The notes under the pieces are model-generated. The model saw only the letters and a list, made by a program, of their open reading frames with translations, made no database searches and was not told the DNA's origin. Of a DNA stretch of 64,000 bases, positions 39,012-55,763 are shown in pieces. The position numbers and the translations under genes are program-made. This DNA comes from Nitrospirota bacterium. GTDB taxonomy: Bacteria > Nitrospirota > 9FT-COMBO-42-15 > HDB-SIOI813. Every line of letters begins with the position of its first letter. The first letter of the stretch is position 1. Where the stretch lies: assembly GCA_020846775.1 (NCBI GenBank), contig JADLDG010000035.1:31569-95568 (forward strand). Direction: 5' to 3'.

Positions 39012-39428
39012 CTATTGTCCCACCAATTTTTCATTAAGTTCAGATAAACCATTTTTACCTTCTAAAAGAATTGGATTCAATTCATACTCTATAAGGTCCG
39101 CGAGGGTTATCCAATCCTTTCCTTCAAAGGCAGAGAGCATCTCTTTAAAGATATCAATGGATTTATTCCACGATGAAAGGGATTCTGATGAGATTTCGGA
39201 CTGTTCCAGACCATTCCTCAATTCCCTGATAAAATCCATAAGGTCGCTGAGATTGTCCATCAAGCCTGATATTTCATTAAAGACCCTCTCAGTTTGTTCA
39301 ATCCTGAGGGAATTGGCACAATCCATTAATCTGGCGCTGATCTGCCCAATACTCTCACAGGTGCTTATAATGCCATCAGTTATAGCTGTCAATAATTCCT
39401 CCCTTTTCTTAACATCTATGTTTGCCAT
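39012..39428 (-). CDS. hypothetical protein
   Basis: 138-aa acidic helical ORF. Its start overlaps the stop region of the upstream GT9-like gene (39416..39428), suggesting co-transcription with the flagellar modification island. Confidence 0.35.
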   Translation of the reverse strand: MANIDVKKREELLTAITDGIISTCESIGQISARLMDCANSLRIEQTERVFNEISGLMDNLSDLMDFIRELRNGLEQSEISSESLSSWNKSIDIFKEMLSAFEGKDWITLADLIEYELNPILLEGKNGLSELNEKLVGQ

Positions 39429-41134
39429 ACGCCTCTCCCTTCTAATGTTAAAGTGCTATTGTTGTTAAACGGTTCAATAAGCTGAATCATTGCAGAGGTC
39501 TGGATTATAAGATTCTTGTATAAGGTGCATGCTGCACTGGCTAAGACCGCTACGTCTTCGCCTTCAAGACTTTCTCTCCCGAATTTAAAGTAAATCACAA
39601 TGGGACGCAGTGCAATATTAGTAAAACCAATTATATCTATATCCTGATCAATTAGTGGTACATCTGCCCAGATATCTTTAATCTTTGCGATATCAGGATT
39701 TTCCCTCTTAGCCTCTTCCGCTATCAGGCTGACTTTTTCAAGTGCCCTCCCGGCTAATTCCTTAAGGCTCCTGAGTGCATCAATCTCATTACTAATTTCC
39801 CAACCGTTAATCCCTTCTGTCACCACTTTTGAAAAAAGGGATTTATCGGGATGATGGCGTAGCGGGGAATTCTCCGGCACAATGGAAGCAGCATTGTGAT
39901 CAAGGGTCTGCAGCCACACCAGTCTGTACAAGTGACGGAAAAAGTCTTCCCTGGTAATGGGCCTTTTGATCCTTGGTATGTACTCTAATAATCCATCATC
40001 AGAAAAGACGGCCTCATTAACCTGCATACCATCCCATAAAGGGGAGTCATCAACCTCCTTTAAACGACCATCGTTATAAAGCATCTCAATAACCCTGTAG
40101 ACACCATCCACACTGACAGTGTCATTACAGATCATGTCCTGACACTTTACATGAAAGCTGCAAGGGTGACAAGGGAGATTCGACTCTATTACTATATGTC
40201 CTTTCCCATATGGGCCGGTCTCACGGAAATAGGCCGCACCGAGGGAGATTCCTATAACCCTTGTCCCTACGGCCGTCGCAATATGCATTGTACCTGAATC
40301 GTTAGAAACAAGAAGATTACAGCACTTCAGATAGGCAGCAAGCTCCTTCAGCGATGTCTTGCCGACCATATCTATTACATCGCTTCCAACCCCCATCTTT
40401 ATTTCTTCACCCAGCGCCCTTTCGCCGCCTGAACCGAAGACTATAACCTTTGCTCCAAGCCTGCTCGTTAATTTCTTTGCAAGTTCAACATATCGTCCTG
40501 TGGCCCACATCTTATGTCTGTCACTAGCGCCCGGCTGAAATCCTATTACAAAATCACCACCGCTGACCCCCGATTTCCGTAATTGCGATTTAGCGGTATC
40601 AAAGACTTCTTCCGGGACTTCCAGAAAAAGTCCTTTTTCTTTCGGCATGGCCCCACCGGCCTTAATATATATGTCACATAGATGAAAAGGATTGTAAATC
40701 CTTCCAGGGACTATATTGAAGAAATATCTTAACCATGGATGTTTTATAAGGGAATGTCCTTTATTATCAGCAATGTATCCCCTGAACTCTTTAGAGCTGA
40801 CGAGAGACATTATGGCTGCACTCACTGTTGTATGAGTGAAGTTTATCACACAGTCATACCCGACCCTGTTTATATCCTCCAACATCTCTTCCATATACCT
40901 GTATTTGCTGACAAGACCGGGGAACTCACCACGCCCGCCCGCTATGAATCCATCCATATTGAAGCTTATGAGCCTGTCTACAAATGGGATGTAGTTACAT
41001 ATTTCGGCAAAGGCGGAGTTTATCAGCAACGTAATCCTGACATCAGTGTAGGCGTCTTTTAGACCTGCCATCACAGGGGTAGTTTGAACAAGGTCTCCCA
41101 TACGTGTAAGATTGATTATCAGGACATTTTTCAT
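39416..41134 (-). CDS. glycosyltransferase family 9 (heptosyltransferase-like) fused to a roughly 230-aa C-terminal domain of unknown function
   Basis: N-terminal NVLIINLTRMGDLVQTTPV pattern typical of GT9/RfaF-WaaC. C-terminal third has no recognisable motif. Confidence 0.5.
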   Translation of the reverse strand: MKNVLIINLTRMGDLVQTTPVMAGLKDAYTDVRITLLINSAFAEICNYIPFVDRLISFNMDGFIAGGRGEFPGLVSKYRYMEEMLEDINRVGYDCVINFTHTTVSAAIMSLVSSKEFRGYIADNKGHSLIKHPWLRYFFNIVPGRIYNPFHLCDIYIKAGGAMPKEKGLFLEVPEEVFDTAKSQLRKSGVSGGDFVIGFQPGASDRHKMWATGRYVELAKKLTSRLGAKVIVFGSGGERALGEEIKMGVGSDVIDMVGKTSLKELAAYLKCCNLLVSNDSGTMHIATAVGTRVIGISLGAAYFRETGPYGKGHIVIESNLPCHPCSFHVKCQDMICNDTVSVDGVYRVIEMLYNDGRLKEVDDSPLWDGMQVNEAVFSDDGLLEYIPRIKRPITREDFFRHLYRLVWLQTLDHNAASIVPENSPLRHHPDKSLFSKVVTEGINGWEISNEIDALRSLKELAGRALEKVSLIAEEAKRENPDIAKIKDIWADVPLIDQDIDIIGFTNIALRPIVIYFKFGRESLEGEDVAVLASAACTLYKNLIIQTSAMIQLIEPFNNNSTLTLEGRGVWQT

Positions 41135-41137
41135 TGA

Positions 41138-42952
41138 TCAATCCTTCTTCGCAGCAAACTGCTTACCGATCTCATTTATCAATACAAATATCTTATCCAC
41201 TCTCGAAAGTTCACCCACACCGGACGCCATATCATCAACGATATCAGAGATAGTAATAGCTCCTTTATTTCTGAACCGTTCCAGATACCTGCCAAGTTCA
41301 GTATGCCTGTCAGCCTCTGCGATAAGCCCCTCCACATCCTCTTTTCTTGAATCCCATGAAGGACGCTCATATCCCCTTTCAAGGATAAACTCAAACATCT
41401 TTTCCATCCTGTGCTCATAAGTATGTTCTTTTATCACCCTTTCCATTCCTCTTTGCGCTATCGCAGCCATTTCTTCATGATTTTCCAGATAATAGTTGAT
41501 CTTTCTCCTCGCATCAGTGAGATCTTTAAAGCATATAATCTCTTCATCCATATTGAACAGTTCTAACAAATTAGACCGGCAATCAACCAATTGAAAAGAC
41601 CCGCATGCTGCTATTTCAAATGTCCTTGGATTGACAAAATCACCGTGAGGGTTAACCCCTTCGTGATATGTGGAAGAATGGATGTTAATATTTATCTTCG
41701 AAGCATTAAATATCTTTACTGTCTCTTCTGTATCTATCCATTCACCGCCTCTTTGAATATGCCTCAGCAATGGCAGGCCGACATCCCACTCGCTCCCCCA
41801 TATCTTAAGATCAAAATCAAGCAATCCGCTGAAGAAAAACCTCCTGTTATGGTATCCGGCCCCAACAAACGATATATCACTTCCGTAAGTGTCTATTTCT
41901 TCTTTTGTCAGGTAAAGCCTCCGGTGAACTTCCTGAGATGCAGCCATAGGAAGATATGAGTAGTTTCTAACGCCACTCGCATCTAATTTGTCAAAAAACT
42001 GGTCCCTCTGGATGGTGAAGAAATAATCATAAAGGGGCGCTATCCTCTCCCAGTAGTTCATAAACCTGAAGTCCTCAACAAACCAGAAGGCGGTGGGTAT
42101 CCTGTTCTCTTTAAGCTTCTGCAGACTTCCTTCGGTTAAAGGGGCCTGTGCAAGGGCAAAAACGAGGTCTGGCTTAAACTCTGCGCACCGTGCTATGGCT
42201 GCCTCTGACAGAAAGGAGATAAACATGGAGCGCAGTTGATTCTGATGGGCCTTTTCACCTGTTATCCCGGGGATTGACTGAAAGACTTCGTTATACTTAC
42301 TGTTGTCTACATAATCAACCTGATGACCCAGTTTTTTCAAGGCAGAGACGCAGTATCCTGCAACAGGGAGAGAGCCGCCGTAGATCGGCCCTACGACCAT
42401 GATCTTCAAACCACTCTTCACAGTCTGACGTAATCTTAGTTTCTTATGGAGGTTCTTTAAACATGATTCACTTACCATGACAGATGGACTATGCTCTACT
42501 ATTGTAAAGCATTTTGGCAACAACGGTATTTTATCCCCTGTTAACAGTTTCACCCTTGTGAGGACATGAGTTAAATCAAAATGTTCCAGAGCTGTTTTCA
42601 GGATATCGAGCCTTGGCTCATAGACAATTATCTCCATACCTGAAATATTGCAAATATCGAGCTCGCAAAGCCCGGCAACATGGTACCCAAGTCCAAAACC
42701 GAGGACGACAACAGCAGATCCCATTTCAACCTTTTCCCGCTGATATTCAACCCACTTGCCAGCCTCCTTCTCAGGATCATACAGGCTATGCAGGGTGATA
42801 TCCCCTACCTTCAAAGAAAGTTTCCCTGACTTAGATGTATGCAGCTTCAAATCATCACTGACACATGCCTCAATAACTGAAGTTGCAAGTGCAGGGTCAT
42901 ATTTCTTCATGACCTCTAAATTTCTATCGAATATGAGGTTATTGGCAGACAT
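41138..42952 (-). CDS. Maf-like (DUF115/MptE-like N-terminal) - CgeB-like (DUF3880 + GT1) putative flagellin glycosyltransferase
   Basis: N-terminal HSLYDPEKEA and VVLGFGLGYH motifs recur in the paralog at 46778..48460. The C-terminal half resembles the CgeB/YkvP glycosyltransferase-like domain. Confidence 0.5.
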   Translation of the reverse strand: MSANNLIFDRNLEVMKKYDPALATSVIEACVSDDLKLHTSKSGKLSLKVGDITLHSLYDPEKEAGKWVEYQREKVEMGSAVVVLGFGLGYHVAGLCELDICNISGMEIIVYEPRLDILKTALEHFDLTHVLTRVKLLTGDKIPLLPKCFTIVEHSPSVMVSESCLKNLHKKLRLRQTVKSGLKIMVVGPIYGGSLPVAGYCVSALKKLGHQVDYVDNSKYNEVFQSIPGITGEKAHQNQLRSMFISFLSEAAIARCAEFKPDLVFALAQAPLTEGSLQKLKENRIPTAFWFVEDFRFMNYWERIAPLYDYFFTIQRDQFFDKLDASGVRNYSYLPMAASQEVHRRLYLTKEEIDTYGSDISFVGAGYHNRRFFFSGLLDFDLKIWGSEWDVGLPLLRHIQRGGEWIDTEETVKIFNASKININIHSSTYHEGVNPHGDFVNPRTFEIAACGSFQLVDCRSNLLELFNMDEEIICFKDLTDARRKINYYLENHEEMAAIAQRGMERVIKEHTYEHRMEKMFEFILERGYERPSWDSRKEDVEGLIAEADRHTELGRYLERFRNKGAITISDIVDDMASGVGELSRVDKIFVLINEIGKQFAAKKD

Positions 42953-42989
42953 AATTTCCTGAATTATCTTCTTCCTTTTCTCATTAAGT

Positions 42990-43991
42990 CTAAACTATTG
43001 CTTTTGACGAAGCCCTGTTTATTATGCCTTTAAGCCCAATGGCATCACTTCTTTCGGGCTCAAACAGGAGAAGTTTATCTATGCTATCAAGTGCCTTATC
43101 AAGTTGCCCGAGCTTGAAGCTCACATCTGCATGCCGATAAAGAAAATCAGTATCAGCCGGATGATGTACCAAATACTCCTCCAGGATATCAATAGCCTTA
43201 TTGAAATCCTGGGAATCGATTGCTGACATCAGGGTATTACACATCTTTTTATTTCCAGACTTTTCTGCCTTTATCAGGTATTGAATTATAAAGAGATCTT
43301 TAAGTTCTTCATGTGACAGACCTTTCAGATTAACCCTGCCAAAGGATATCTCTCCTGAAAGAGGATCATGCAAGGAACTATAAGCAGGATCAATATTGGC
43401 AGTTATCCCTGTTATCTCATATCCAGCCTCTGTAAACAGGGATTCCATATCTTTCATCGTAAAGAATCTCAGATGGGTTCTATCGAGGATACCCGAGTCC
43501 TGATACTTCCAATGCCCTTCCACCAGCATGTTTAGAACCCCGTAATACCGTACATTCGGAATGCTTGCGACAATAGAACCAGAATCAGCAAGATAGTGTT
43601 TGAATCTCCTGAGTGTTGACAATGGTTCCTTCAGGTGTTCCAGTATGTCGGCAAATATAATACAGTCAAAATAACCATCTTCATATTGAAGTTCCAGACA
43701 CGTCACATCTCCCTTTATAACCCGTGACAGATTCTCATTTGCCCTCTTACTCGCAATTGGATCAACTTCAATACCAACAACTTCTTCAGCCCCTTTTTCC
43801 AGCAGCCTTTTCCCGAGTATACCCTCTCCGCAACCCACATCAAGAATCCTCATGGCTTCCTCGGGCACAAGAGTCTCGACTTCTTTTCTTCCCTGGCGAA
43901 AGTATTCCCTGTCAACAGTCTTATCTAATCCATTTTGCGTCTGACTCCTCGTATCGTTAATCACTTTATCTCCTGCGCTACATGGATACAT
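42990..43991 (-). CDS. class I SAM-dependent methyltransferase fused to TPR repeats
   Basis: SAM-binding motif I ILDVGCGEGILG. Motif post-I/II (DCIIFADILEHL). C-terminal TPR-like repeats. Confidence 0.6.
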   Translation of the reverse strand: MYPCSAGDKVINDTRSQTQNGLDKTVDREYFRQGRKEVETLVPEEAMRILDVGCGEGILGKRLLEKGAEEVVGIEVDPIASKRANENLSRVIKGDVTCLELQYEDGYFDCIIFADILEHLKEPLSTLRRFKHYLADSGSIVASIPNVRYYGVLNMLVEGHWKYQDSGILDRTHLRFFTMKDMESLFTEAGYEITGITANIDPAYSSLHDPLSGEISFGRVNLKGLSHEELKDLFIIQYLIKAEKSGNKKMCNTLMSAIDSQDFNKAIDILEEYLVHHPADTDFLYRHADVSFKLGQLDKALDSIDKLLLFEPERSDAIGLKGIINRASSKAIV

Positions 43992-46767
43992 AGCCTTCTA
44001 TCTGTCTTTTAAGTTCCACCGCCCCTGTCATTTCTTTATTGAACAATAAAACCTTTTCCAGATTGTCCAGCGCGGTGTCATAGTCATGAAGCTTAGAACA
44101 AACCTCCGAATATTTAATGATAATTGACAAATCAAGTGGATGTAACTCTAAATATGATTCTATTAGTCCCCTGGCGTCTGCATGCCTTCCTTCTGCAATG
44201 GTGGCATCAATCTCAGCTATCAGATCCGCTGGCTCTTCAAATGCCTTTCTGAAAAACCTGAGTGGCGCGCTATTCAACATTTCCAGACCCATTTCTTTTA
44301 CAATGTTATAAAACCCTTCGTTGGTATAACGTTCCACATTCAGATGCCATCCGGCCTCACCATTGTTATTATAAAATGAAGCAAACATAATTAAATAACC
44401 ATTAGGGTTTAAGTGTTCAATCAGGTATTTGACGGTTTTCTCCGGTTCTACCAAATGTTCAACCACATCCAGCATGATCACAACATCATATCTATTTGAA
44501 CCGAGGAAATCATCCTTGTATGCATCAATCATGTTCACATCAAGGCATCTCCTTCCAAACCGCCATTTTGCATAATTGAAGGTCTTGCCGGGGATATCTG
44601 CATAATTAAGTCGTATGTCACTTATCCTGGACAGATTGATGATCTGACTCCCTATCCCGCCGCCAAAATCAAGAATGTCAAGCTTTCCACGTTCAGAGGA
44701 GACTTGCCGACAAAATCTGGTTATCTCATCAATCCCCTGCATATACATGGGATTCTCATAATTGTATTGGACCAGATCATAGAGATATGAATCCGTATTG
44801 ATGTAAAACTCGTTGACCTTTTCCTGGGTCAGAATGCATTTAGAGATGTCACCCCAATCTTTAATCTGTTGGTCATAAACACACCTTATACGACTTATAA
44901 CCTCATCAACATCTACGCCGGTATAACGTGCCAATTCCTGGACCGCTCCTCTAAAAGAGGACTGTACCAGTTCTTCAAAAAGAAGACTGAACTTCTGGGC
45001 TATCTTTTGTGAGTCAAATTCATTAATAGCCCGCTCCCTTCCTTTTATACACAACTCTTTTTTTAATGTGTCATCTTTCAGAAGATTTATAATCGCAGAA
45101 GAAAGTCCTCTCGGATCATTGGATTGAACAAGTATTCCTGCATCACCCACCACCTCCGGAATAGAGCCGGAATAAGTTGAGATAACTGGAAGACCGCAGG
45201 CCATAGCCTCTGTCAAAACCATTCCGAACTGTTCCTTCCATGTTCTTGTAGAAATACTTGGAAGAACAAATATATCGGCCATGTTAAACATTTCATGCAT
45301 TCTGTGGTAAGGGTAGCCCTCTATAAATGTAAACATTGAGCCGACTCCAAGCTCCTCAACCCTGCTTTTAATCCCAGCTGATTCAGATCCTTTTCCAATG
45401 ACTACAAACCTGAAGTGAACATCCTTAACACTATCCTCCTGGGTAACCAATTTTGCAGCGTATAGCAGGTCATAGATACCCTTTTCCCAGACTATTCTTC
45501 CTGTAAACAACACAACTCGCTCCTCTTTGCCGATACCAAATTCTTTTCTTAACCTCCATCTTGCCTCGTTATCCGGCCTGAACCTGTTTACATCAATTCC
45601 CATTGGAATGACAGTTATCTTGTCTTCCGGTACCCCTTCTATGATCAGGGCATCTTTTGCTCTTTCGGTCACGGCAACAAAGTGATCCACCATCTGCCGG
45701 TTAAACCGCTTCATCTCTCTCATCTGCTCATCTTCCTCGTAGGCGAAGGGGATATTTTCCCATTCGAGAGCAATGATCCTCTTTCCAAATTTTTGTTTCA
45801 TAACTGCTGCCTGATATGTAAATATCCAGGTAATATCAGCTGTATAAATAATATCCTTATCGAGGAGTTCTGCCTCAAGGCCTATCATATAGGCAGGGTT
45901 TTGAGGATGGGGAGGAAGTTTAACAACAGGAAGAGTAATATGGGATAGATCAAAACTTGATTGAGTTGTCGTATAAGAAGTTATGTCAAATGTTTTGTAC
46001 AGAGGTTCATAATTCTGCATCTCCCAGTGATTAAGATTAGGCCCCCTTAATATCGCAACCCTGGGACGTTCAGACATCTTTTCAGAAGTATATGGTGGAA
46101 CCCAACGGCTAACCATAGTCCTAAGCGGCCTGACCTGGACATCATATTCCCTGTAAAAAAGTTCTTCCGGATTATTGAAACCACTTTCTTCCATTTGTGA
46201 ATATTGCTCACTTTTTTTCCAATACTTTTCCTTATCCAGGAAACCATAATGTACAACGTATGCATCCCAGTGTTTGTCTAATCCATCGTAAGGTTTCGTC
46301 AATAGTTCATGTAACTGCCCCTCCCATTTGACCTCCTTGCGGTTACGCCAAATCCTCGGAATATTTTCATAATCATCAGCTCCCCTGGAATAATACTTTT
46401 CATTTCCAATGAGATTACACTGACGGATGAAATAACCGGTAGTGTCTCCCGGAGTTGATTCAAGCAGGGTTCTTATATTTTCTTCGAAGTACTGCGAAAA
46501 TGCCTCATCTGCATCAAGGCGCACCACCCAGTCACCTGTGCAATTGTCAAGAGAGATCTGCCGCTGCTTCCCAAAATGGCCTTCCCATATATGTTGAATC
46601 AACGTAACATTCCGGTAAGACCTGAGTATTTCCAGCGTGCCATCAGTACTGCCACCATCAACAACTACGATCTCGTCGGCAAATGTACATGAGCTCAACG
46701 CCCTTGCAATATTCTTTTCCTCATTCATTGTAATCATCGAAACGGAAATCTTCATAACTTCCTCCAA
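43978..46767 (-). CDS. multidomain glycosyltransferase: GT2 - GT4(GT1-fold) - SAM methyltransferase - TPR (929 aa)
   Basis: N-terminal GT-A (ISVSMITMNEEKNI ... VVDGGSTDGT ... DADE). Central GT-B/GT4 segment (VLFTGRIVWEKGI ... EQFGMVLTEAMACGLPVI). C-terminal SAM MTase motif I (ILDFGGGIGSQ ... MLDVVEHL). TPR tail. Confidence 0.6.
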   Translation of the reverse strand: MEEVMKISVSMITMNEEKNIARALSSCTFADEIVVVDGGSTDGTLEILRSYRNVTLIQHIWEGHFGKQRQISLDNCTGDWVVRLDADEAFSQYFEENIRTLLESTPGDTTGYFIRQCNLIGNEKYYSRGADDYENIPRIWRNRKEVKWEGQLHELLTKPYDGLDKHWDAYVVHYGFLDKEKYWKKSEQYSQMEESGFNNPEELFYREYDVQVRPLRTMVSRWVPPYTSEKMSERPRVAILRGPNLNHWEMQNYEPLYKTFDITSYTTTQSSFDLSHITLPVVKLPPHPQNPAYMIGLEAELLDKDIIYTADITWIFTYQAAVMKQKFGKRIIALEWENIPFAYEEDEQMREMKRFNRQMVDHFVAVTERAKDALIIEGVPEDKITVIPMGIDVNRFRPDNEARWRLRKEFGIGKEERVVLFTGRIVWEKGIYDLLYAAKLVTQEDSVKDVHFRFVVIGKGSESAGIKSRVEELGVGSMFTFIEGYPYHRMHEMFNMADIFVLPSISTRTWKEQFGMVLTEAMACGLPVISTYSGSIPEVVGDAGILVQSNDPRGLSSAIINLLKDDTLKKELCIKGRERAINEFDSQKIAQKFSLLFEELVQSSFRGAVQELARYTGVDVDEVISRIRCVYDQQIKDWGDISKCILTQEKVNEFYINTDSYLYDLVQYNYENPMYMQGIDEITRFCRQVSSERGKLDILDFGGGIGSQIINLSRISDIRLNYADIPGKTFNYAKWRFGRRCLDVNMIDAYKDDFLGSNRYDVVIMLDVVEHLVEPEKTVKYLIEHLNPNGYLIMFASFYNNNGEAGWHLNVERYTNEGFYNIVKEMGLEMLNSAPLRFFRKAFEEPADLIAEIDATIAEGRHADARGLIESYLELHPLDLSIIIKYSEVCSKLHDYDTALDNLEKVLLFNKEMTGAVELKRQIEGYVSM

Positions 46768-46777
46768 AACCAGCTGT

Positions 46778-48460
46778 TCAGGAATAGCGCTTCTTCATGC
46801 TGTCAATCAGCATCTTTATCCGGTGGACATACGTATGTTCCCTCGAGATCCTTTCTCTTCCACATTCCGATATTCGCTTTCTTTCCTGAGAATTGTTCAG
46901 ATAAAACTTTAAAAGTCCCGGTATCTCCTCCCTGTTTTTATAGGTTATAACCTCTTTCCCTATATCAAAGAGATCACCTAACGCATCCTGATCATCAGTC
47001 AATAGAAATGCACCACATGCCGGGACATCAAAGACCCGCTGATTAACGGCGCTACCCATCTGCAGATTAGTAGCGTTGAAATTTATCTTGCAGGCATTGT
47101 AAAAGCGGGGAAGTTCACTGTAATAGTTTAACGGAGGCCTGATATTGAAATCTCTGCTTAAGAGTTCATGCCAGCCTTTATCCCCGTAAACCCTCGGACT
47201 GTATTCTTTAAGTCTTTCTATGCAAGAGAGTCTGTATATAAGTGTTGATCTCCAGAGAACAGCGGCCTCAAGATCAAGCCTCTCCTGAACAGGAAGGGCT
47301 CTTACTTTTTCTTGCTCATCATTATTCAACATTCTCAATAATTCATCGAAAGACAGATGAGAGGAACCAAGGCGCTGCGATAACCTTTCAGTAATAGAGC
47401 GCAATTTCACTGGTACCTTTTTCAGCTTTTCTGCTGCCGGTTCGACCATAGAGTTGCCTACAAAACCTATGACTGTATTGAATCTGTTTTTATCCTTCTG
47501 ACTTAAATTTAAAGGTTTAAAGACATCAGTGTCCGCTGCAAGTGGCAGGTATTCAACTAACTCAAAACCCATAGCCTTCATATCGTTTATATATCCCTTA
47601 TCCCATAAATAAAGTGAGACATATGGAGATACATTTTTTTCAAAGGCCTTGACTATAAGATTCGGGCTGTCAACATACCACGATGCCACAGGCATCTCAA
47701 TTGATTTTAAAAAAGATGTCAAGACCCCGTCTTCATCAAAGCCAAGATGGTTAATGGTGAGGAGGAAATCCGGTTTGAATTCAAGGATGGTACTCAACAT
47801 GCGCGATACAATGGCCTCCCCATCTTCTCCCTTCTTTAAAGGAACTTTTACGACCTCTTGACCAAGGCGTTTAATAGCGTCTGCCACCTCGGAGGTCAGG
47901 AAATAGCCATAATCTATAAAGGCGATCTTAGTCTTTTCCTCCTTAAACCTTGGGTATCTGAGCCTTTCCCAGAGCCTGACTGATGTTGTGTTTTTTAAGG
48001 AGATAAGGATAGGATTATAGTAGTCTGGCATGGCTGAAACGACCGGAGCCAGGGGAAAGGAGGCAACAGAAGGCATTCCAGACGTTAACTGATACCTGGT
48101 AATCTCTCTTATAGCCGCATCAGAAGTGACTCCGATTATGAATCTAACCCTATCTTCGATCTCTCCCATCCTACCATATTCCTTTGCCAGTCCATACATC
48201 TCATGACTTGATTCAACCACAATAATCCTGGCCTCCGGAAACCTGCGGACAAGCTCCATCAGATGATAACCAAGCCCCAATCCTAATACCACTAATAGCC
48301 CTTTCCCATCAAAATAAAAGGCATCTGCAATTGCCCTGGCTTCTGCCTCGGGGTCATAGAGGCTGTGAAGTGTTTTTAAAGAGCCGTCTTCATACGTAAC
48401 CCTTATTGAATAACTGCCATTTTTCGTTTCTACTAAGGAATGATTATTGATAACAGACAC
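46778..48460 (-). CDS. Maf-like (DUF115) - CgeB-like putative glycosyltransferase, paralog of 41138..42952
   Basis: HSLYDPEAEA and VVLGLGLGYH N-terminal motifs. C-terminal CgeB-like region. Same architecture as the first paralog. Confidence 0.5.
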   Translation of the reverse strand: MSVINNHSLVETKNGSYSIRVTYEDGSLKTLHSLYDPEAEARAIADAFYFDGKGLLVVLGLGLGYHLMELVRRFPEARIIVVESSHEMYGLAKEYGRMGEIEDRVRFIIGVTSDAAIREITRYQLTSGMPSVASFPLAPVVSAMPDYYNPILISLKNTTSVRLWERLRYPRFKEEKTKIAFIDYGYFLTSEVADAIKRLGQEVVKVPLKKGEDGEAIVSRMLSTILEFKPDFLLTINHLGFDEDGVLTSFLKSIEMPVASWYVDSPNLIVKAFEKNVSPYVSLYLWDKGYINDMKAMGFELVEYLPLAADTDVFKPLNLSQKDKNRFNTVIGFVGNSMVEPAAEKLKKVPVKLRSITERLSQRLGSSHLSFDELLRMLNNDEQEKVRALPVQERLDLEAAVLWRSTLIYRLSCIERLKEYSPRVYGDKGWHELLSRDFNIRPPLNYYSELPRFYNACKINFNATNLQMGSAVNQRVFDVPACGAFLLTDDQDALGDLFDIGKEVITYKNREEIPGLLKFYLNNSQERKRISECGRERISREHTYVHRIKMLIDSMKKRYS

Positions 48461-49973
48461 CCTTTGCTAAAATCTCATCTATTTTATTTAATTCCGAAGT
48501 AACTCTGTTGAGGGATTCCGCCTCCAGGTAATACGCTCCTATAGCATCACCCACAGTCATAGCATATATTTTATAAATACATGCTACAAAGTCTTCCTCC
48601 CGGCCGGATAACGTATTATGTCTGGCCAAAAGATATTCGGAAAACTGATTAAGGTAGTTCATGATATTCGGGATCAATATATTCTGTTTAAAATTATACA
48701 TATTTTGGGGGGAGCGAACGGCATTTTCAAACAACATAGAATACAAAATATTCAGGCCCTCGTCTCCCTGTATTCTCATTCTTTTCAAACCTTTTTCTAT
48801 CCCGTCAGGATGCTTATTTATATTCTTCTGAATAGCACTTAGTAGTGATTTTAATGCTGTCATGGGATTGCTGTTCACGGGGTTAGACTCAGAAATTGAG
48901 AGGTTAATAAGGTTATAGGTACCAATAATCACAGCTACTAACTGGTCCCAGGTAATGTTATATCTTGAAAATAAATAGGGCAGTTCGTTTTGCAAAGTAT
49001 GAACATTGGCCTTTGAACCTATACTATGCCGTTTTAATACGTCAACCGCACCCCTTTCATGCCAATGATAAACGCCCGTTGAATTTAAGTAGCCGATAAC
49101 CTTACGTTTGTGCAGGAGTTTTACACCAAAGTCAATATCCTCTGCATTCATCATGGGGGTGAATTTGACCTCTCCAAATATATCCCTTCTCACACATGAT
49201 GAAACGTTGTCAAAGAATGTCAGCCTCCTTTTCGTAGCCCCATCAAATGCCCTCAGGCCTATTCCCCCAATGTCCATCAAGAGGGTGTACATGGAGTCCT
49301 GCTCAAACCCCAGTATTGTACCCAGCAATTCATTCTTCCATAAACTGAAGAGGTCAGCTTCAGGTTTAACAAACTGCTTTGACGAAAGGGCAGCTAATCG
49401 CGGGTATTCGATTAATGGGCATACCATGTTGTAAAGCCAATAATTATTGATAGGAAGAGCGTCTTGCACTGTAAAGACGAGGTAATCACCTGTCGCTTTT
49501 GCAGCCCCTGTATTTCGGGTCATACCATGATTGAATTCCTTCTGAGGGATATCTATAATTACCGCTCCGAACCCGGCAGCTATCTCTTTTGAATTGTCTG
49601 AAGATCCAGAATCGATCACAATAATTTCTATATCATTTACCTTTCTCTGAGACCTTATCATACCGAGTAAACCCTTTAATTTCTCTCCGCCATTATTGAC
49701 CGGTATAATAACTGAGACTTTATCCGCTATGGCAGACGGCCTTGTTCTTACATCAATTGGCGTTATCTCAAAGAGCAGACTCAATGCATTCCGCAGGGAA
49801 TCATCTTTTTCGACCAGTTTATTGCTCAAATCGGATATCGTACGTTCTGCAGCCATTACTTTCTTTAGATATCTTGTGGCTGCTTCATGTTTTTCCTTGA
49901 ATATGCGACTGGCACATTCCAGGGCCCATTCCATCTCCCGCACTTTGTCTTTTATCACCATATCATTTTGCAT
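48444..49973 (-). CDS. family 2 glycosyltransferase with N-terminal coiled coil and C-terminal unknown domain
   Basis: GT-A motifs VSVIIPVNNGGEKL ... IIVIDSGSSDNS ... DxD-like VQD. Confidence 0.55.
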   Translation of the reverse strand: MQNDMVIKDKVREMEWALECASRIFKEKHEAATRYLKKVMAAERTISDLSNKLVEKDDSLRNALSLLFEITPIDVRTRPSAIADKVSVIIPVNNGGEKLKGLLGMIRSQRKVNDIEIIVIDSGSSDNSKEIAAGFGAVIIDIPQKEFNHGMTRNTGAAKATGDYLVFTVQDALPINNYWLYNMVCPLIEYPRLAALSSKQFVKPEADLFSLWKNELLGTILGFEQDSMYTLLMDIGGIGLRAFDGATKRRLTFFDNVSSCVRRDIFGEVKFTPMMNAEDIDFGVKLLHKRKVIGYLNSTGVYHWHERGAVDVLKRHSIGSKANVHTLQNELPYLFSRYNITWDQLVAVIIGTYNLINLSISESNPVNSNPMTALKSLLSAIQKNINKHPDGIEKGLKRMRIQGDEGLNILYSMLFENAVRSPQNMYNFKQNILIPNIMNYLNQFSEYLLARHNTLSGREEDFVACIYKIYAMTVGDAIGAYYLEAESLNRVTSELNKIDEILAKGVCYQ

Positions 49974-49984
49974 TATTTCTCCCC

Positions 49985-51319
49985 TTACGCCAGAAAGGTA
50001 TCATTGATCATTATGGATTCTAAAAAGTCATAATCCACATTTCTAACCTTTGGAGCCATCGCACCTCTATCACTCAAAGACTCTGTATTGTCATCTCCAA
50101 CAATGAGGTTATTGGTTTTATAAAAGTCATATAATGCGCTTCCAGGGACCGGGGTATAAAAGGCAGGGGAAAAATGGACAGGTTTGACCCGTAAAACACC
50201 TTCAACAGTCATCAGATCATCTTCTTTGTGCCATCCGGTATCTGTTGGTATACCAAGGATATAGTTTGCCCAGACCTTTACACCATGTTTATGACAAATC
50301 TCCGCTGCCTTGAAGTTTTGATCTACCGTAACCCCTTTATTGAACCACTTCAATACCCTCGGGCTGAATGACTCAAATCCTACTATCAATAAGAGAAGAC
50401 CTGCAGCTGCCATATCCCCTATGAGTTTATCATTTTTACATATGTTATCAGCCCTGCTTGATGTGACCCATTTAAGACCATATTTCACGATTCCGCTGGA
50501 ATGAAGGGCAGTTATGAACTCTTCAACCCATTTTGGAGATACTATGAACTGATCATCATGGAACATAACGGATTTAATGCCATACCTGTCTATCAGCATC
50601 TTCAGTTCAGCTATGACATTTGACACGCTTCTCCCCCGAATATAAGTTTTTCGAGTCCCGTTTTCTCTTAATTTCGTATAGAGCTGATGCTCTCCAGGCC
50701 CACAACAGAACTTGCATGTATAAGGACATCCCCTTACGTTGATCATCTCAGCCATAGGTAAGGGAAACCTGAAACCAGTTAATCCAAATGGTTCGGAAAA
50801 CATTCTCCTTTTAAAGTCCGGCCAAATTTCCCTTTCCGGGAATGGGATCGTATCAAGATCCGGAGTTTCACCCCAAAAGCATTTAGGGAACATAGACGGA
50901 TCTTCTACCAATTCCACGAAGCTGATTTCTCCTTCACCCTGGATAACATAATCGAAATTGCCGCTATCAATGCACTCCTGCGGGAACATGGTTGGGTGAA
51001 CTCCGCCAGCGACCACAATTACCCCTGGTAAGACCTCTTTGGCTCTTTTGGCAGCTTCCAGAGCTATAGAATATTCTACAGAATGTATGGATATTCCTAT
51101 GAACTCCGGAGAGATAGCCTTTACAACCTGTTCATATTCACTCCAACCTGACAATGTCCTTAAGTCAGCAAGATGAACATCGTGCCCCCTTGCCTTTAAC
51201 GACCCTGCCAGATATGCAAGACCAAGGCGAATGAATGTTGTATCTGGTGATGGTTTGCTTATGTCCGCATTCCATGTGCTATATGCTATTGATGGATTAA
51301 CCAGTAAGACCTTTGCCAT
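49985..51319 (-). CDS. B12-binding domain radical SAM protein (class B rSAM)
   Basis: N-terminal cobalamin-binding-like Rossmann segment. CxxxCxxC cluster motif (CPYTCKFC). Confidence 0.65.
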   Translation of the reverse strand: MAKVLLVNPSIAYSTWNADISKPSPDTTFIRLGLAYLAGSLKARGHDVHLADLRTLSGWSEYEQVVKAISPEFIGISIHSVEYSIALEAAKRAKEVLPGVIVVAGGVHPTMFPQECIDSGNFDYVIQGEGEISFVELVEDPSMFPKCFWGETPDLDTIPFPEREIWPDFKRRMFSEPFGLTGFRFPLPMAEMINVRGCPYTCKFCCGPGEHQLYTKLRENGTRKTYIRGRSVSNVIAELKMLIDRYGIKSVMFHDDQFIVSPKWVEEFITALHSSGIVKYGLKWVTSSRADNICKNDKLIGDMAAAGLLLLIVGFESFSPRVLKWFNKGVTVDQNFKAAEICHKHGVKVWANYILGIPTDTGWHKEDDLMTVEGVLRVKPVHFSPAFYTPVPGSALYDFYKTNNLIVGDDNTESLSDRGAMAPKVRNVDYDFLESIMINDTFLA

Positions 51320-51353
51320 TTGAAGCCTCCATTAAAGAAGTAATTGAATATTT

Positions 51354-52988
51354 TCATTCCAATTGACCGGAATGCTCCCTGCACTCTTTAAATGACCTTA
51401 ATCCGCTTCCCCTGATGAGTTTTATTGTCTCTATTCTTTTAGGTGTCAGCCATGCATCCCTGACAGACATCTCTGTTATATTTGCTTCTGGCTTATCCCA
51501 GGCACCGGCTTCGCATGGGCAAAGCACCACGTCACCATCCGTTGTTATCGCCATCTCATTTTCTATGAAATAGCACAGATTGAAATTTGGCACCTCTTGT
51601 GAGACTTCAGCATCCATTTCCCCTCCTCTTATCCTGTATGCCGGGAACTGAACCTTATTAATGCCCAATTTTTCAAAATAATCTGTAAATTCCTTTCTAC
51701 TTTCAGACATGGTTAGAGGGAGTTGAATCTTTGTCACCCATACATCAGTTTTTGAGTTAAGTCGTTCTCTTATGGAGAGGAAGTTTTTAATATTAGTTAA
51801 AACTACATCAAGATCCAGACCCCGTCTTATCCTTTTGTATAAATCTTTATTCAATGTATCTATAGAAAATACGACAATATCAACATTTCCATCCAATAAC
51901 TGATTTGCCTTATACGTATCCAATAAATATCCAGGCGTCGCTATCCAGTTTTCAAATCCAAGTTTTTTTGCTCTCTTCATAAACCTGTATATCCTGTCGT
52001 CATACAATGGATCATTAATCCACTCCCAGTTTATTTTACACTTCCAGTCAACTTCATCAAAGATTTTATCAACCAGCCTCTCTGGCATCAATTTGTTTTT
52101 TCGTTTTTTTAAAACCATTTTCCTGGGACACATCAAACAACTCGAGGGACATCCAATAGCTGTTTCGAGAGAAAAATATGTGGGCAGCAAAATAGATTTA
52201 TCCAGAATATCCGCACAATCCTCCGAATTAGTACACTTATTGAAAGTATCTGCCTCGTCCTGAGTTAGTCTGATCTTTGAATTATCAGTTTTGATAAAAT
52301 ATCTGTCTTCAACTTGCCTGTCATCTTTCGTCTTATATGCAATGCTTACTTCATGGATACCATCTATCAGAACCAGCGTATTTATGTAAAACCTAAATCC
52401 GCTGCAGCTTGAGTTATTTATGTCGGGATAGATCAATGCGACATCATCCCTCTGCAACCCATATTCTGCCCGCAACAAGTGCCTGCCATCAACATATACT
52501 TCGATAGATCCAATGCCTGTAATGGATATCGCCCATCCTTCAAAGCGCTTGATACCCTGAAGAGGTTGGAGCAATTCCGGCAAATCAAGATGTCTGTGAA
52601 CATTCTCCTCAATTTCAAAATCCTTGTAAATTTTCTTGCATATTTCACGGAGATTAATTGTAGCCTCCGAATATGCAGGGGCCAAATCCAGCGCCTTTGT
52701 GAACTGAAATATTGCATCTATAGACTTTCCTTTAATAAATAAACACGCCCCGTAATTATTTCTTATCTCCGGATTATCCGGATACCTCTCTGTCAAATAC
52801 CCAAATATCCTTTCTGCCTCATCAAATAATCCTGATCCATATTTCCCCATGGCTTGTTCCATCAAGGTAAAATCCTCTGAATTGATATTAAGACCTGCCC
52901 TATGACTGTTGTCTAACATGAGTAAACGACTCCAAATGGTATCTTCTTGACTCCCGCCGCAGTTTAGACGCAGAGGAGTGACTGACAT
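51354..52988 (-). CDS. TPR - radical SAM / SPASM-like domain protein
   Basis: N-terminal TPR. CxxxCxxC motif (CPSSCLMC). C-terminal Cys-rich auxiliary-cluster-like segment (CYFIENEMAITTDGDVVLCPCEAG). Confidence 0.55.
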   Translation of the reverse strand: MSVTPLRLNCGGSQEDTIWSRLLMLDNSHRAGLNINSEDFTLMEQAMGKYGSGLFDEAERIFGYLTERYPDNPEIRNNYGACLFIKGKSIDAIFQFTKALDLAPAYSEATINLREICKKIYKDFEIEENVHRHLDLPELLQPLQGIKRFEGWAISITGIGSIEVYVDGRHLLRAEYGLQRDDVALIYPDINNSSCSGFRFYINTLVLIDGIHEVSIAYKTKDDRQVEDRYFIKTDNSKIRLTQDEADTFNKCTNSEDCADILDKSILLPTYFSLETAIGCPSSCLMCPRKMVLKKRKNKLMPERLVDKIFDEVDWKCKINWEWINDPLYDDRIYRFMKRAKKLGFENWIATPGYLLDTYKANQLLDGNVDIVVFSIDTLNKDLYKRIRRGLDLDVVLTNIKNFLSIRERLNSKTDVWVTKIQLPLTMSESRKEFTDYFEKLGINKVQFPAYRIRGGEMDAEVSQEVPNFNLCYFIENEMAITTDGDVVLCPCEAGAWDKPEANITEMSVRDAWLTPKRIETIKLIRGSGLRSFKECREHSGQLE

Positions 52989-53065
52989 GGTAATAAAGCA
53001 AATACCTTGCCATGTATTATAAGAGGTAATATAAGTAGAATTAAAAGGATAAGTCTGGAAATAAA

Positions 53066-53461
53066 TCAGATGCTTATGCTTATAGTGGAGCCATTCTGAT
53101 TACATTTATTATGACGGGAAAATAATTTAAAGTTCTCAAGAACACTTATCTGGTCCAATAAAGAAGCCATTTCTAACTGAAGTGTATTCTTCATCTCATT
53201 GTTACGGGTCAGAATTTTCTCGATGTTTATAACCATCTCCCTTGAACCATTATTACGGTGATTATGGGCCTCCTCATTCAATGGGAGTAACTGTGTATTC
53301 ATTACTTCTCTGTCAATATTTTGGATGTCATCAATAATTCTCTGACGTTTTTCGAGTATTTCTAACGCCTCATCAAACCTTTCATCCCGAAGTGCATTTA
53401 ACTGATCCTCTGCCAGTCCAAGCAGTTTTTTGTACAGACTTAAGACTCTTTCACTACTCAT
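53066..53461 (-). CDS. putative flagellar export chaperone FliT-like protein
   Basis: 131-aa helical protein immediately after fliS (4-nt overlap), in the fliD-fliS-fliT position of Bacillus-type operons. No diagnostic motif. Confidence 0.3.
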   Translation of the reverse strand: MSSERVLSLYKKLLGLAEDQLNALRDERFDEALEILEKRQRIIDDIQNIDREVMNTQLLPLNEEAHNHRNNGSREMVINIEKILTRNNEMKNTLQLEMASLLDQISVLENFKLFSRHNKCNQNGSTISISI

Positions 53462-53874
53462 ACCCTCAACTCCATCCCTGCAGAAACTGCCTCTTTTGGA
53501 ATATTAACAATGTTATTCTTGCCAATATCTTTCCATGCAGATCGTAATACCTCGAGGACCTTAACAGCATCGTCAAGCGCTTTTTCGTCGTTCTTCATAT
53601 TGGCTGTTATTAATCTGTCTAAGACAAAATCATAGAGCCTGCTCAGATTTTTAGCGATCTCCCCGCCTGCCTCCATGTTGATCGAGCTTAATAGCTCCCC
53701 AACCACTGAGGAAGCCTTTCCTATATAAAGCCCCTTACCTGCGATGTCACCAAGCTCTATTCTCTTCCTTGCAACCTTGATAAAATTGATGGCCCCATCA
53801 TACATCAGGGAAATGACTTTTACACTATCGGAAGTATTCACTTCTGCCTTCCTGTAATCTGACACTTGTTGCAT
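53458..53874 (-). CDS. fliS: flagellin-specific chaperone FliS
   Basis: VISLMYDGAINFIKVA pattern. 138 aa. Position after fliD. Confidence 0.8.
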   Translation of the reverse strand: MQQVSDYRKAEVNTSDSVKVISLMYDGAINFIKVARKRIELGDIAGKGLYIGKASSVVGELLSSINMEAGGEIAKNLSRLYDFVLDRLITANMKNDEKALDDAVKVLEVLRSAWKDIGKNNIVNIPKEAVSAGMELRV

Positions 53875-53895: not shown

Positions 53896-55293
53896 TTACT
53901 GTGAATTCCATTTTGTAATCTGATTATTCAGAAATGTCCCCTGAGAAGTCAGTCCATTTAGCAGTGATTCCAATGCCGAAAATCGTCTCCGCAGATCATC
54001 TTCTACTTTCACCAATCTTGTTTCAAGAGAAGTTATATTACTTGCAATATTATTGACAACAGATTGAAGACCGCTTTTCCTTATGGTCAGAGCTCCGTCG
54101 GTTGATTTTGTGATAGTGTCAGCGTAACTCCATATCTGATTGGCTATGCCGGTAGTGGCAGTTGCAAATAGTTTGGACACATCGTCAATCCTAGCTGAAA
54201 GCTTGTCGCTCAATGTCGTGCTGTTAATCGTTAGTGTCCCATCCTTTGAGTTAGTAGTTATGCCTATCCCTGCGAGTGAATCTACATCAGATGAAGCAGC
54301 TGAAACCGTGCCTATTACCATTGCCTTCATGCTTCTAACCACATCCCTTGCCGTCGCATCACCGAGTAAGGGACCTCCAGTCTTGGTAGTGCTGTCCCAT
54401 GAAGACTTCGAAGCGGCATAATTTATAGCATTGTTATATGCCGTTACAAAGTCCTCGATCTTTTTCTTTATCGAGTCTGTATCATTTGTAACCGCAACAG
54501 TAGCAGAGCTTGTAGATTCCTTTTTAAGGGTAAGGGTTAAACCTGATATTACACCTGATACGTTATTTGAACTGCTTGTAATGTCAATGCCGTTAATCCT
54601 GAGTTTGGCATCCTGGGCGGTCTGATTAGTGGTAAAGGCGCTGCCGGTTAAATCTACTGTACTGCCTGTGCCATCCAGGGTTGTTCCGGAATCGATACTG
54701 ATAGTCTTTGTGCTGCCGCTATCATTACCGGTTAGCGCCAGCTTGTAAACAGAACCATCATATATTATTGTAGCATTAACCCCGGGATTACCAGAGTCGC
54801 TATTGATAAGGTCCCTAAGTCCCTCAAGAGTAGTTCCGTCTGCGACGGTGATGGAACTCTGGGAGCCTGCATAGGTATATTGAAATATTTTATCAGAGCC
54901 GCTGCTGTTAACGCTTGTATTGATGGCAGCAGTCCCAGCAGTATGCGATTTCTGCTCTGACTGGGCGAGCTGTATCTTACCTGCGGTGGAATGAGATGCT
55001 ATCGTATAGCTCCCGGCAGGTGCAGAGTTCGTAGCCGATGCATCAAGGATAGTGCTATCACTGACTGATGCCTTTTTTGCAAAAAAGTTGGATGTTGTCC
55101 TCAATTCATCAGCAGCAGTCTTTAATGACAAGATCTTTGATTGAAAGTCACTATAAGCCGTTATTTTATCGTTGTAGGCCGTCTGTTTGCTTTGAAGCAG
55201 GGTCACCGGACGACGCTCCAACTCCATCAGCTTGGTTATTATATCATTTGCGTTAATGCCGGAACTAAGACCGGAAACAGAAAAAGTAGACAT
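53896..55293 (-). CDS. fliD: flagellar filament capping protein FliD
   Basis: N-terminus SGLSSGINANDIITKLMELERRP is a typical FliD sequence, with a C-terminal coiled coil. 465 aa. Confidence 0.85.
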   Translation of the reverse strand: MSTFSVSGLSSGINANDIITKLMELERRPVTLLQSKQTAYNDKITAYSDFQSKILSLKTAADELRTTSNFFAKKASVSDSTILDASATNSAPAGSYTIASHSTAGKIQLAQSEQKSHTAGTAAINTSVNSSGSDKIFQYTYAGSQSSITVADGTTLEGLRDLINSDSGNPGVNATIIYDGSVYKLALTGNDSGSTKTISIDSGTTLDGTGSTVDLTGSAFTTNQTAQDAKLRINGIDITSSSNNVSGVISGLTLTLKKESTSSATVAVTNDTDSIKKKIEDFVTAYNNAINYAASKSSWDSTTKTGGPLLGDATARDVVRSMKAMVIGTVSAASSDVDSLAGIGITTNSKDGTLTINSTTLSDKLSARIDDVSKLFATATTGIANQIWSYADTITKSTDGALTIRKSGLQSVVNNIASNITSLETRLVKVEDDLRRRFSALESLLNGLTSQGTFLNNQITKWNSQ

Positions 55294-55698: not shown

Positions 55699-55704
55699 GT
55701 AAAT

Positions 55705-55736
55705 ATGGGGACGGCACTGTTGGCAGGCCGCCCCCA
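55705..55736 (-). terminator. putative rho-independent terminator downstream of flagellin gene
   Basis: Minus-strand ggggcggcctgccaacagtgccgtcccc forms an imperfect GC stem followed by atattt. It is conspicuously GC-rich and lies about 30-60 nt after the fliC stop. Confidence 0.4.
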
Positions 55737-55763
55737 TATCCTTATTAATTTCAGATTAACACC

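Follow-up and report, generated by a model that had tools for sequence, protein, structure and literature searches.

What do the nine tightly packed open reading frames (ORFs) that follow the flagellar filament genes of a Nitrospirota bacterium contribute to its flagellum? These ORFs lie on the minus strand at positions 39012-52988 of the stretch of DNA that we analysed, 64 kb of contig JADLDG010000035.1 that we refer to as the window, and we call them the island. The original prediction, made from the letters of the window, was that a run of co-directional genes with small gaps downstream of the filament genes modifies flagellin. The run itself is as described, with inter-ORF gaps of -17 to +77 nt. 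Here we examine the encoded proteins and their relatives, which were drawn from metagenome loci (labelled L0xx). We consider it likely that the island carries out O-glycosylation of flagellin, the filament protein, together with tailoring of the attached glycan, and that both take place in the cytoplasm.

Results

A CgeB-like protein family is linked to flagellar filament genes

The most widely conserved gene of this and related islands, and the one that is linked to flagellin, lies at 46778-48460 on the minus strand and encodes a 560-aa CgeB-like glycosyltransferase (GT). When metagenomes were scanned with the family of this protein alone, with no flagellar query, 80 loci were recovered, and these were searched with the window proteins by tblastn. 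Of the 31 loci that span 10 kb or more, 13 contained fliC, fliD or fliS, as did 8 of the 14 that span 15 kb or more. A naive binomial calculation gives P of about 2e-19 for 13 of 31; near-duplicate loci shrink the effective sample size, and the excess is still very large. The link to the flagellar filament that had been proposed for the window is therefore recovered by the CgeB-like protein on its own.

The order of genes is also conserved. The series fliC-flaG-fliD-fliS, with or without a FliT-like ORF, is followed by the CgeB-like gene in L011, L017, L026, L039, L043, L044, L046, L087 and L092, and the CgeB-like gene often comes directly after fliS (L039, L043 and L046). It is the sole window island gene detected after fliS in L039, where the contig ends shortly beyond, and L043 holds a minimal island of fliS, the CgeB-like gene and a 138-aa ORF. 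Other arrangements place the CgeB-like gene near fliC (L002, L051, L056, L058, L062, L075 and L077). This order-conserved linkage extends across loci at 35-75% identity. Chance falls far short of explaining why the same genes accompany filament genes in many independent loci, and linkage to filament genes is a property of the whole CgeB-like family.

The family is large, with more than 1,000 matches to the 560-aa protein at E<=1e-10; where a source is named, it belongs to the Nitrospirota or Desulfobacterota. Among the matches listed, the 119 with the best scores align with 91-100% of the 560-aa protein at 51-75% identity. A cluster look-up of the family returned only metagenome-assembled genomes (MAGs) as sources.

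The core enzyme joins a Maf-like N-terminal domain to a GT-B fold

The 560-aa protein consists of a degenerate Rossmann domain, similar to the N-terminal domain of Maf, fused to a GT4-like GT-B domain of the CgeB type; residues 178-560 adopt the GT-B fold, with two Rossmann-like domains that superpose on GT4 enzymes. Its motifs HSLYDPEAEA (residues 32-41) and GLGLGYH (60-66) correspond to HSxYDPxxEA and GxGxGYH, which are invariant in the N-terminal ~170 residues of the family. The Pfam domain Maf_flag10_N (PF20157) was found in 33 of 38 family members at E<=0.01. In the window it scored 34.8 bits, above the cut-off of 23.5, in a second CgeB-like protein of 604 aa (41138-42952, minus strand), and 22.1 bits, below the cut-off, in the 560-aa protein. 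DUF3880 (PF12996) followed by Glyco_trans_1_2 (PF13524) was present in both window proteins and in all 38 family members. The 604-aa protein is a paralogue of the 560-aa protein, with 25-33% identity and the same N-terminal motifs, and we regard the 560-aa and 604-aa proteins as candidate flagellin glycosyltransferases 1 and 2.

A Foldseek search with the 560-aa protein retrieved Magnetospirillum Maf (5mu5) at E 2.7e-6, the sole entry among the top 50 that was not of the GT-B type. At the level of sequence, the protein and its family profile gave only a weak match in the PDB, to the Rossmann domain of O-methyltransferases. The N-terminal domain of Maf has likewise been described as a degenerate Rossmann fold that weakly resembles methyltransferases (PMC11339370). 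The catalytic domain of Maf (PF01973, DUF115/MAF_flag10), however, had no match at E<=0.01 in either window protein or in the 38 family members. The original prediction had called both proteins Maf-like and had invoked Maf enzymes as the precedent, and this appeal fails, since the catalytic domain is absent and the N-terminal domain alone is shared. The proteins are thus not members of the Maf family, and a nonulosonate donor is not implied.

The Maf proteins of Campylobacter, Aeromonas, Shewanella and Magnetospirillum (5mu5) resemble the CgeB-like family in that they are soluble, are encoded at flagellin loci, with multiple paralogues per locus in both, and begin with a degenerate Rossmann domain. 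They differ in that the GT-A-like MAF_flag10/DUF115 domain is replaced here by a GT4-like GT-B domain and that no CMP-nonulosonate pathway lies nearby, so the donor is probably from a different class of sugar than that of Maf. FlmG from Caulobacterales, which we compared by architecture, shares with the island the GT-B fold, a cytoplasmic location and the logic of a binding domain joined to a glycosyltransferase, and tetratricopeptide repeats (TPRs) are encoded in the same locus here. In FlmG, N-terminal TPRs precede a C-terminal GT-B domain that uses Pse/Leg donors, whereas in the island a Maf-N-like domain is on the glycosyltransferase and the TPRs are on the tailoring enzymes. The window CgeB-like proteins lack the N-terminal TPR on GT-B that marks the FlmG class, and a TPR fusion occurs in some relatives (L048). 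Judged by its domains, then, the core enzyme belongs neither to Maf, for want of DUF115, nor to FlmG, for want of TPRs on the glycosyltransferase. Its DUF3880 and Glyco_trans_1_2 domains are those of CgeB, a putative glycosyltransferase of spore-crust maturation in B. subtilis, and some databases label relatives as spore maturation protein CgeB. Unlike CgeB, the proteins described here have an extra N-terminal domain of ~170 aa and belong to flagellar loci, not to sporulation loci, of non-sporulating phyla.

Short flagellins as the presumed acceptor

The flagellin gene of the window, fliC (55764-56618, minus strand; Pfam Flagellin_N/C), encodes a 284-aa protein with only the D0 and D1 domains, no Cys and 9 Lys. 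Ser and Thr make up 25% of its residues 135-205. Flagellins adjoining related islands are also D0/D1 only and are 267-287 aa long, except for one called as a 309-aa ORF, which is extended at its N terminus. Alignment and composition showed that the D1 loop of these island-linked flagellins is rich in Ser/Thr, with several conserved Ser/Thr columns. In short flagellins that lack D2 and D3, the D1 loop carries the glycosylation sites (PMC11339370). We presume that the fliC product is the acceptor of the island glycan. A sactipeptide-like Cys cross-link on flagellin was also considered and rejected; with no Cys in the protein, thioether or sactionine-type links and Cys-derived formylglycine are excluded on flagellin.

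Predicted site of the reaction and sugar donors

Kyte-Doolittle analysis revealed no convincing membrane segment in the island proteins. A 19-residue mean of at least 1.6 was reached in two of them only (1.75 and 1.65), and both segments are Rossmann-type strands. Pfam searches of the island proteins found no flippase, polymerase, oligosaccharyltransferase, ligase, ABC exporter or priming phosphoglycosyl transferase. The absence of membrane segments and of lipid-linked machinery fits direct glycosylation of protein in the cytoplasm. Maf and FlmG glycosylate flagellin in the cytoplasm, and both FlmG and Maf-1 have TPR domains that bind it (10.1101/2023.12.03.569772). By analogy, we infer that the island glycan would be built stepwise on flagellin in the cytoplasm, and, as many of the tailoring enzymes are fused to TPRs, their substrate may be the glycan already bound to the protein.

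The GT4, GT2 and GT9 folds of the island enzymes point to ordinary UDP-, GDP- or ADP-sugars as the donors. The only nucleotide-sugar-type gene among the window ORFs that were scanned is an isolated NAD-dependent epimerase/dehydratase (GDP-mannose dehydratase/GalE-like) at 10250-11191. It is 28 kb from the island, between genes for a TPR protein and a DUF3108 protein.

Two radical SAM enzymes

The island begins with genes for two radical S-adenosylmethionine (SAM) enzymes. The first (51354-52988, minus strand) encodes a 544-aa protein with TPRs at ~37-122, an immunoglobulin (Ig)-like beta-sandwich at 131-234, a radical SAM core with CPSSCLMC at 280-287 and a C-terminal twitch/SPASM-like region containing four conserved Cys (472, 490, 492 and 536). 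Pfam detected the TPR and Radical_SAM domains and, marginally, SPASM (22.6 bits against a cut-off of 21.5). The CX3CX2C core and a Cys-rich C-terminal domain of the auxiliary-cluster type are both present, as in the twitch/SPASM class. As only four C-terminal Cys are conserved, the enzyme probably holds one auxiliary cluster. The structural model was of moderate confidence, with a mean predicted local distance difference test (pLDDT) score of 70.7. Compared with twitch/SPASM enzymes that act on sugars (BlsE, DesII, BtrN) or peptides (SuiB, PqqE, anSME), this protein stands out by its unique N-terminal TPR and Ig domains and has only four conserved C-terminal Cys.

This enzyme is rare, with about ten relatives among 5.8 billion proteins and a single locus in a scan of a genome collection. 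In an exhaustive search, about ten cluster representatives among 1.84 billion proteins matched the radical SAM core strongly; this search was swamped by the Ig-like domain and is informative only on the rarity of the core. The TPR and Ig parts are missing from the orthologues in L001 and L006-L008. The Ig-like domain itself (window 52287-52598) is a very common repeat that accounts for most of the strongest matches, with 350 proteins at E<=1e-30, and in those strongest matches it occurs in 4-12 copies per protein, in proteins of up to ~5,000 aa.

The second gene (49985-51319, minus strand) encodes a 444-aa B12-type enzyme, in which the B12-binding Rossmann domain (PF02310) scored 74.7 bits and the radical SAM domain (PF04055) 65.4 bits. 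It thus has both parts of the B12-type class, with CPYTCKFC at 198-205 as its CX3CX2C motif, in which C198 and C202 do not vary among 36 homologues. Searched against the PDB, the family profile matched 9ccb, an unnamed radical SAM protein (E 5e-22), AprD4 (E 5e-20) and OxsB (E 7e-17), and it also matched the methylases TokK and TsrM. The best NCBIfam matches were BchE and then HpnJ (101 bits against a cut-off of 577), and all equivalogs scored far below their cut-offs. Because the closest solved relatives include the non-methylating sugar diol-dehydratase AprD4 and OxsB, C-methylation is just one option for this enzyme.

The adjacent GT2 gene (48444-49973, minus strand) provides a further clue. 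The B12-radical SAM and GT2 proteins are fused in L002, L004 and L005, as one 960-aa protein, and adjacent elsewhere, and this Rosetta-stone fusion indicates that both act on the same substrate. More distant relatives of the B12-type enzyme are encoded in glycan clusters (L094 and L095), as is a 67%-identical one (L013). From sequence, fusion and these contexts, the enzyme is best read as a putative sugar-modifying partner of the GT2 that would carry out C-methylation, deoxygenation or rearrangement. In the hopanoid pathway, the GT2 HpnI works with HpnJ, a B12-type radical SAM enzyme that rearranges the transferred sugar, and this pair may be an analogue of the island pair. HpnJ, AprD4 and OxsB are B12-domain radical SAM proteins like the island enzyme; they act on sugars, and HpnJ is coupled to a GT2, as in the island. 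The substrate here is, by contrast, probably a protein-linked glycan and not a lipid or antibiotic, and the scores are far below the family cut-offs. The B12-radical SAM domain is fused to a sulfotransferase in L011 (10001-12064) and also in P0020, P0023 and P0025.

One locus with a 41%-identical B12-radical SAM protein, L094, has a mixed flagellin and polysaccharide context. At 1852-16297 it encodes this protein, a 458-aa flagellin, several GT2 and GT4 enzymes, an asparagine-synthase-like protein, a PhyH dioxygenase and a Wzx-like flippase, and it also holds a second radical SAM-GT2 fusion, of 805 aa.

Other island enzymes and the 138-aa protein

The GT2 protein is soluble and 509 aa long, with its Pfam GT2 domain at residues 87-199 and a long C-terminal region that belongs to no family. 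Its match to GmaR (PDB 22ao; E 2.8e-7) is a generic GT2 match. In phmmer searches, residues 316-349 (48927-49028) matched TAL-effector repeats at E values down to 5e-12; these matches were rejected, as no single domain passed, and are probably a compositional or repeat artefact.

Two Pfam-assigned methyltransferases follow the first CgeB-like gene. The 929-aa protein (43978-46767, minus strand) is a fusion of GT2, GT4 and class I methyltransferase domains with a TPR-like C-terminal tail, and this tail aligns with the TPR tail of the 333-aa protein (42990-43991, minus strand). The latter is a class I SAM methyltransferase in which PrmA was above its own cut-off among many overlapping matches to methyltransferase families. 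Downstream of the second CgeB-like gene, the 572-aa GT9 fusion (39416-41134, minus strand) has a heptosyltransferase-type GT-B fold at residues 1-346 (PF01075, 96.5 bits; PDB 3tov, E 1.3e-20). All lipopolysaccharide (LPS) heptosyltransferase equivalogs in NCBIfam scored far below their cut-offs, which indicates that the protein is not an orthologue of WaaC, WaaF or WaaQ. A Cys-rich motif at the end of the domain, CHPCSFHVKCQDMIC (residues 322-336; window 40127-40171), is possibly a metal finger, and is followed by a domain of ~220 aa without a family.

The last gene of the island (39012-39428, minus strand) encodes a 138-aa protein with no Pfam family, and its start overlaps the stop of the GT9 gene by 13 nt. 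Homologues were found in L026, L043, L047, L051, L042, L040, L001, L058, L080 and L088, usually as the last island gene. They share the C-terminal motif DW..LADLI(E/Q)YEL.P, and the longer ones have an extra N-terminal domain of ~70 aa. Pfam searches with ten of them at E<=1 returned noise only, and hhalign detected no relationship between this family and that of the FliT-like ORF. GlfM, a small helical specificity factor, is encoded next to Maf-2 (10.1101/2023.12.03.569772). The four-helix bundle GlfM and the 138-aa protein are alike in position and size only, both being small and encoded beside a glycosyltransferase, in our case with translational coupling. We propose that the 138-aa protein may be an adaptor or specificity factor.

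The islands are modular

Comparison of the loci revealed recurring groups of genes. One module, consisting of the B12-radical SAM, GT2 and CgeB-like genes, occurs in the window, L011, L012, L017 and L092. It follows fliS or the FliT-like ORF in L011, L017 and L092, and in L002 it lies beside fliC with a different gene order. The same module with the SPASM-type radical SAM gene added is found in a small clade. The second CgeB-like gene, the GT9 fusion and the 138-aa ORF form another module, complete in L026, L047, L051, L058 and L001; in L037 and L075 the CgeB-like and GT9 genes were found and the 138-aa ORF was not detected (L037 ends inside GT9). A third module joins the GT2-GT4-methyltransferase and methyltransferase-TPR genes (L016, L045, L046 and L053).

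Additional tailoring enzymes are encoded in related islands. L044 encodes a GT4-GT4-TPR protein and a 922-aa TPR-radical SAM protein, L048 a radical SAM-TPR protein, a methyltransferase-TPR protein and a 1249-aa CgeB-TPR protein, and L017 a methyltransferase-TPR protein. PAPS-reductase-like and sulfatase-methyltransferase-TPR proteins are encoded in L087 (3945-7060), a sulfotransferase-TPR protein in L026 (6282-7421), and a radical SAM/SPASM protein, a GT2-sulfotransferase and an RmlD/epimerase in L051 (5592-9461). The sulfotransferase, PAPS-reductase-like and sulfatase genes suggest that sister lineages may have sulfated flagellin glycans.

The filament block and the fliC leader

In the order of transcription on the minus strand, the genes are flgK and a flgL-like gene, csrA (57429-57692), fliW (56918-57370), fliC, flaG (55324-55737, between fliC and fliD), fliD for the filament cap (53896-55293; Pfam FliD_N/FliD_C), fliS for the flagellin export chaperone (53458-53874; Pfam FliS, 122 bits), a FliT-like ORF (53066-53461) and then the island. 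The last of these filament-block ORFs encodes a 131-aa helical protein, and its start overlaps fliS by 4 nt. It scored 19 bits with Pfam FliT (PF05400), below the cut-off of 29.5, and agrees with FliT only in its small size and its position after fliS. It is kept after fliS in L017, L026, L087 and L092 (30-32% identity by tblastn). Downstream of the island are a hybrid histidine kinase gene and then housekeeping genes.

Set against this map, the gene run described in the original prediction is confirmed, and its interpretation is supported in part. Pfam upheld fliD and fliS upstream of the island, and FliT weakly at best; it also upheld the glycosyltransferases, two methyltransferases, two radical SAM enzymes, TPRs and GT9 of the predicted domain content, and not the DUF115 of the supposed Maf proteins. 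The genes had not been listed in their true order. Nor are they an island in the compositional sense, as G+C content is unremarkable across them. We considered whether the region was horizontally acquired and rejected this, since both G+C content and skew are uniform over it. An Rfam scan of the window gave no match.

The fliC leader (56619-56917, minus strand) contains an element, TAAGTTT-N11-TCCGAAAA, at about 56783-56757 that is sigma-28-like; a search with a strict sigma-28 pattern gave no match. The leader also holds a hairpin, GGGCAAGGATGCCC, with GGA in its loop, and an AAGGAGG Shine-Dalgarno sequence. We read the hairpin and AAGGAGG as two CsrA-type sites, as in the leader of hag in B. 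subtilis. Together with the csrA and fliW genes immediately upstream, these sites suggest that a FliW-CsrA-flagellin partner switch may operate at this locus.

Discussion

Our results favour a model in which the island glycosylates flagellin and remodels the glycan before export, and we infer every step of it from domain anatomy and genomic context. One or both CgeB-like enzymes would use the Maf-N-like domain to dock on flagellin that is unfolded or chaperone-bound, and the GT4-type GT-B domain would transfer a common nucleotide sugar to Ser/Thr of the short D1 loop. The soluble GT2, GT2-GT4 and GT9 enzymes would extend the glycan on the protein without a lipid carrier. Tailoring enzymes, namely the two SAM methyltransferases and the two radical SAM enzymes, held on flagellin by TPR domains, would then modify the protein-bound glycan. 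The B12-type enzyme may alter the sugar added by its partner GT2 by C-methylation, deoxygenation or ring rearrangement, and the twitch/SPASM enzyme may oxidize, decarboxylate or epimerize a sugar. The 138-aa protein, the FliT-like ORF or both could serve as small helical specificity factors. The modified flagellin would be exported and polymerized, and the resulting filament probably carries a coat of an unusual glycan that has been chemically tailored. The island is probably co-expressed with fliC-flaG-fliD-fliS.

Several observations weigh against this model. The host is an uncultured MAG. Docking on flagellin through the Maf-N-like domain is a guess. Scans for promoters and terminators across 38.5-57.5 kb gave counts no higher than the shuffled expectation and so lend no support to an operon; the operon structure of the island and filament genes is drawn from gene spacing alone. 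As originally predicted, the ORFs scanned across the window include neither pse/leg/neu-like genes nor any other pathway dedicated to nucleotide sugars. Some family members have no flagellar gene within 10 kb, and in L012, a complete Nitrospiraceae genome, the cassette lies beside isc/recO genes. Distant relatives of the B12-type enzyme (41-44% identity) occur in glycan clusters with Wzx-like flippases (L094 and L095), and in L013 a 67%-identical B12-type enzyme, paired with a GT2, is part of an rml/RgpF polysaccharide cluster. Lastly, the structural neighbours of the SPASM-type enzyme are as often peptide-modifying as sugar-modifying.

The L012, L013, L094 and L095 contexts would be expected if the genes formed a cell-envelope cluster for a lipid-linked polysaccharide (LPS core or O-antigen, exopolysaccharide or capsule) that simply neighbours flagellar genes, and GT9 is the family of LPS heptosyltransferases. 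We nevertheless judge this highly improbable, because the island has no membrane protein and none of the flippase, polymerase, ligase, exporter or priming functions that such a cluster calls for, because the linkage to fliC, fliD and fliS is repeated in conserved order among divergent loci, because the core enzyme bears a Maf-N-like domain, and because the many TPR fusions are typical of protein-directed glycosyltransferases. It is also very unlikely, in our view, that the target is another flagellar or secreted protein, such as FliD, the FlgL/FlgK junction proteins, FlaG or a non-flagellar protein. The linkage is indeed to the whole fliC-flaG-fliD-fliS block and not to fliC alone, and FliD is rich in Ser/Thr. 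In L051, L075 and L078, however, the neighbour is fliC, with fliD absent or partial and no fliS, and flagellin is the acceptor of the Maf and FlmG classes in the literature, as it is of GmaR.

Another reading is that radical SAM chemistry acts directly on the flagellin polypeptide, beside glycosylation or partly in its place. This would be chemistry in the manner of ribosomally synthesized and post-translationally modified peptides, applied to a structural protein of full length. The TPR-bearing SPASM enzyme, and possibly the methyltransferase-TPR protein, might then bring about epimerization, C-methylation, cross-linking or FliB-like Lys methylation. Such a role would suit the fusion of TPR and Ig-like domains to the radical SAM core, the further TPR-radical SAM fusions in L044 and L048, the flagellin-binding TPRs of FlmG and Maf-1, and the score of the methyltransferase-TPR protein above the cut-off of PrmA, a protein Lys methyltransferase. 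We think it unlikely. The orthologues in L001 and L006-L008 have no TPR or Ig part, the SPASM enzyme always has glycosyltransferases around it and the B12-radical SAM/GT2 pair as its neighbour, and a Cys-free flagellin could accept neither sactionine links nor conversion of Cys to formylglycine.

Glycosylation of flagellin with glycan tailoring thus accounts best for the locus, which overall probably resembles known flagellin glycosylation islands. The islands of Pseudomonas, Clostridioides difficile and Campylobacter, and Listeria GmaR (TPR-GT2), likewise have variable sets of glycosyltransferases and methyltransferases beside fliC/fliD/fliS that build and tailor a flagellin O-glycan. To our knowledge, none of them has radical SAM, GT9 or Maf-N CgeB-like GT-B enzymes. 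What is probably new here is the putative class of flagellin glycosyltransferase and the tailoring by radical SAM enzymes. In full-text literature searches, neither radical SAM nor CgeB-like enzymes turned up in connection with flagellin modification, nor did any account of flagellin glycosylation in Nitrospirota, in agreement with the earlier view that the system is uncharacterized. We propose, tentatively, that the Nitrospirota and Desulfobacterota possess a third class of flagellin glycosyltransferase, in which Maf-N docking is combined with a CgeB/GT4 GT-B domain, and that in this clade the glycan or flagellin is rewritten by two radical SAM enzymes recruited through TPR/Ig domains.

Most of what is known about flagellin glycosylation comes from pathogens and concerns enzymes of the Maf, FlmG and GT2-TPR types. 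The locus described here suggests that anaerobes and nitrifiers of environmentally dominant lineages have a widespread class of enzyme that is unstudied, and the fused B12-radical SAM/GT2 pair hints at new radical chemistry that would give C-methyl, deoxy or rearranged sugars within a protein-bound glycan. TPRs are repeatedly fused to methyl-, sulfo- and radical SAM enzymes, which offers a testable principle, namely that the acceptor protein, and not the nucleotide sugar, is where tailoring takes place. The minimal versions, two or three genes that comprise fliC, the CgeB-like gene and in some cases the 138-aa ORF, are of a size that suits heterologous reconstitution and glyco-engineering. If our reading is correct, it would explain how short flagellins with only D0 and D1 gain a surface coat. 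The tentative proposal of radical SAM enzymes recruited through TPR/Ig domains, if true, would be the first radical SAM chemistry on a protein of the flagellar filament and an instance of glycan tailoring carried out on the protein by enzymes that TPRs tether to it.

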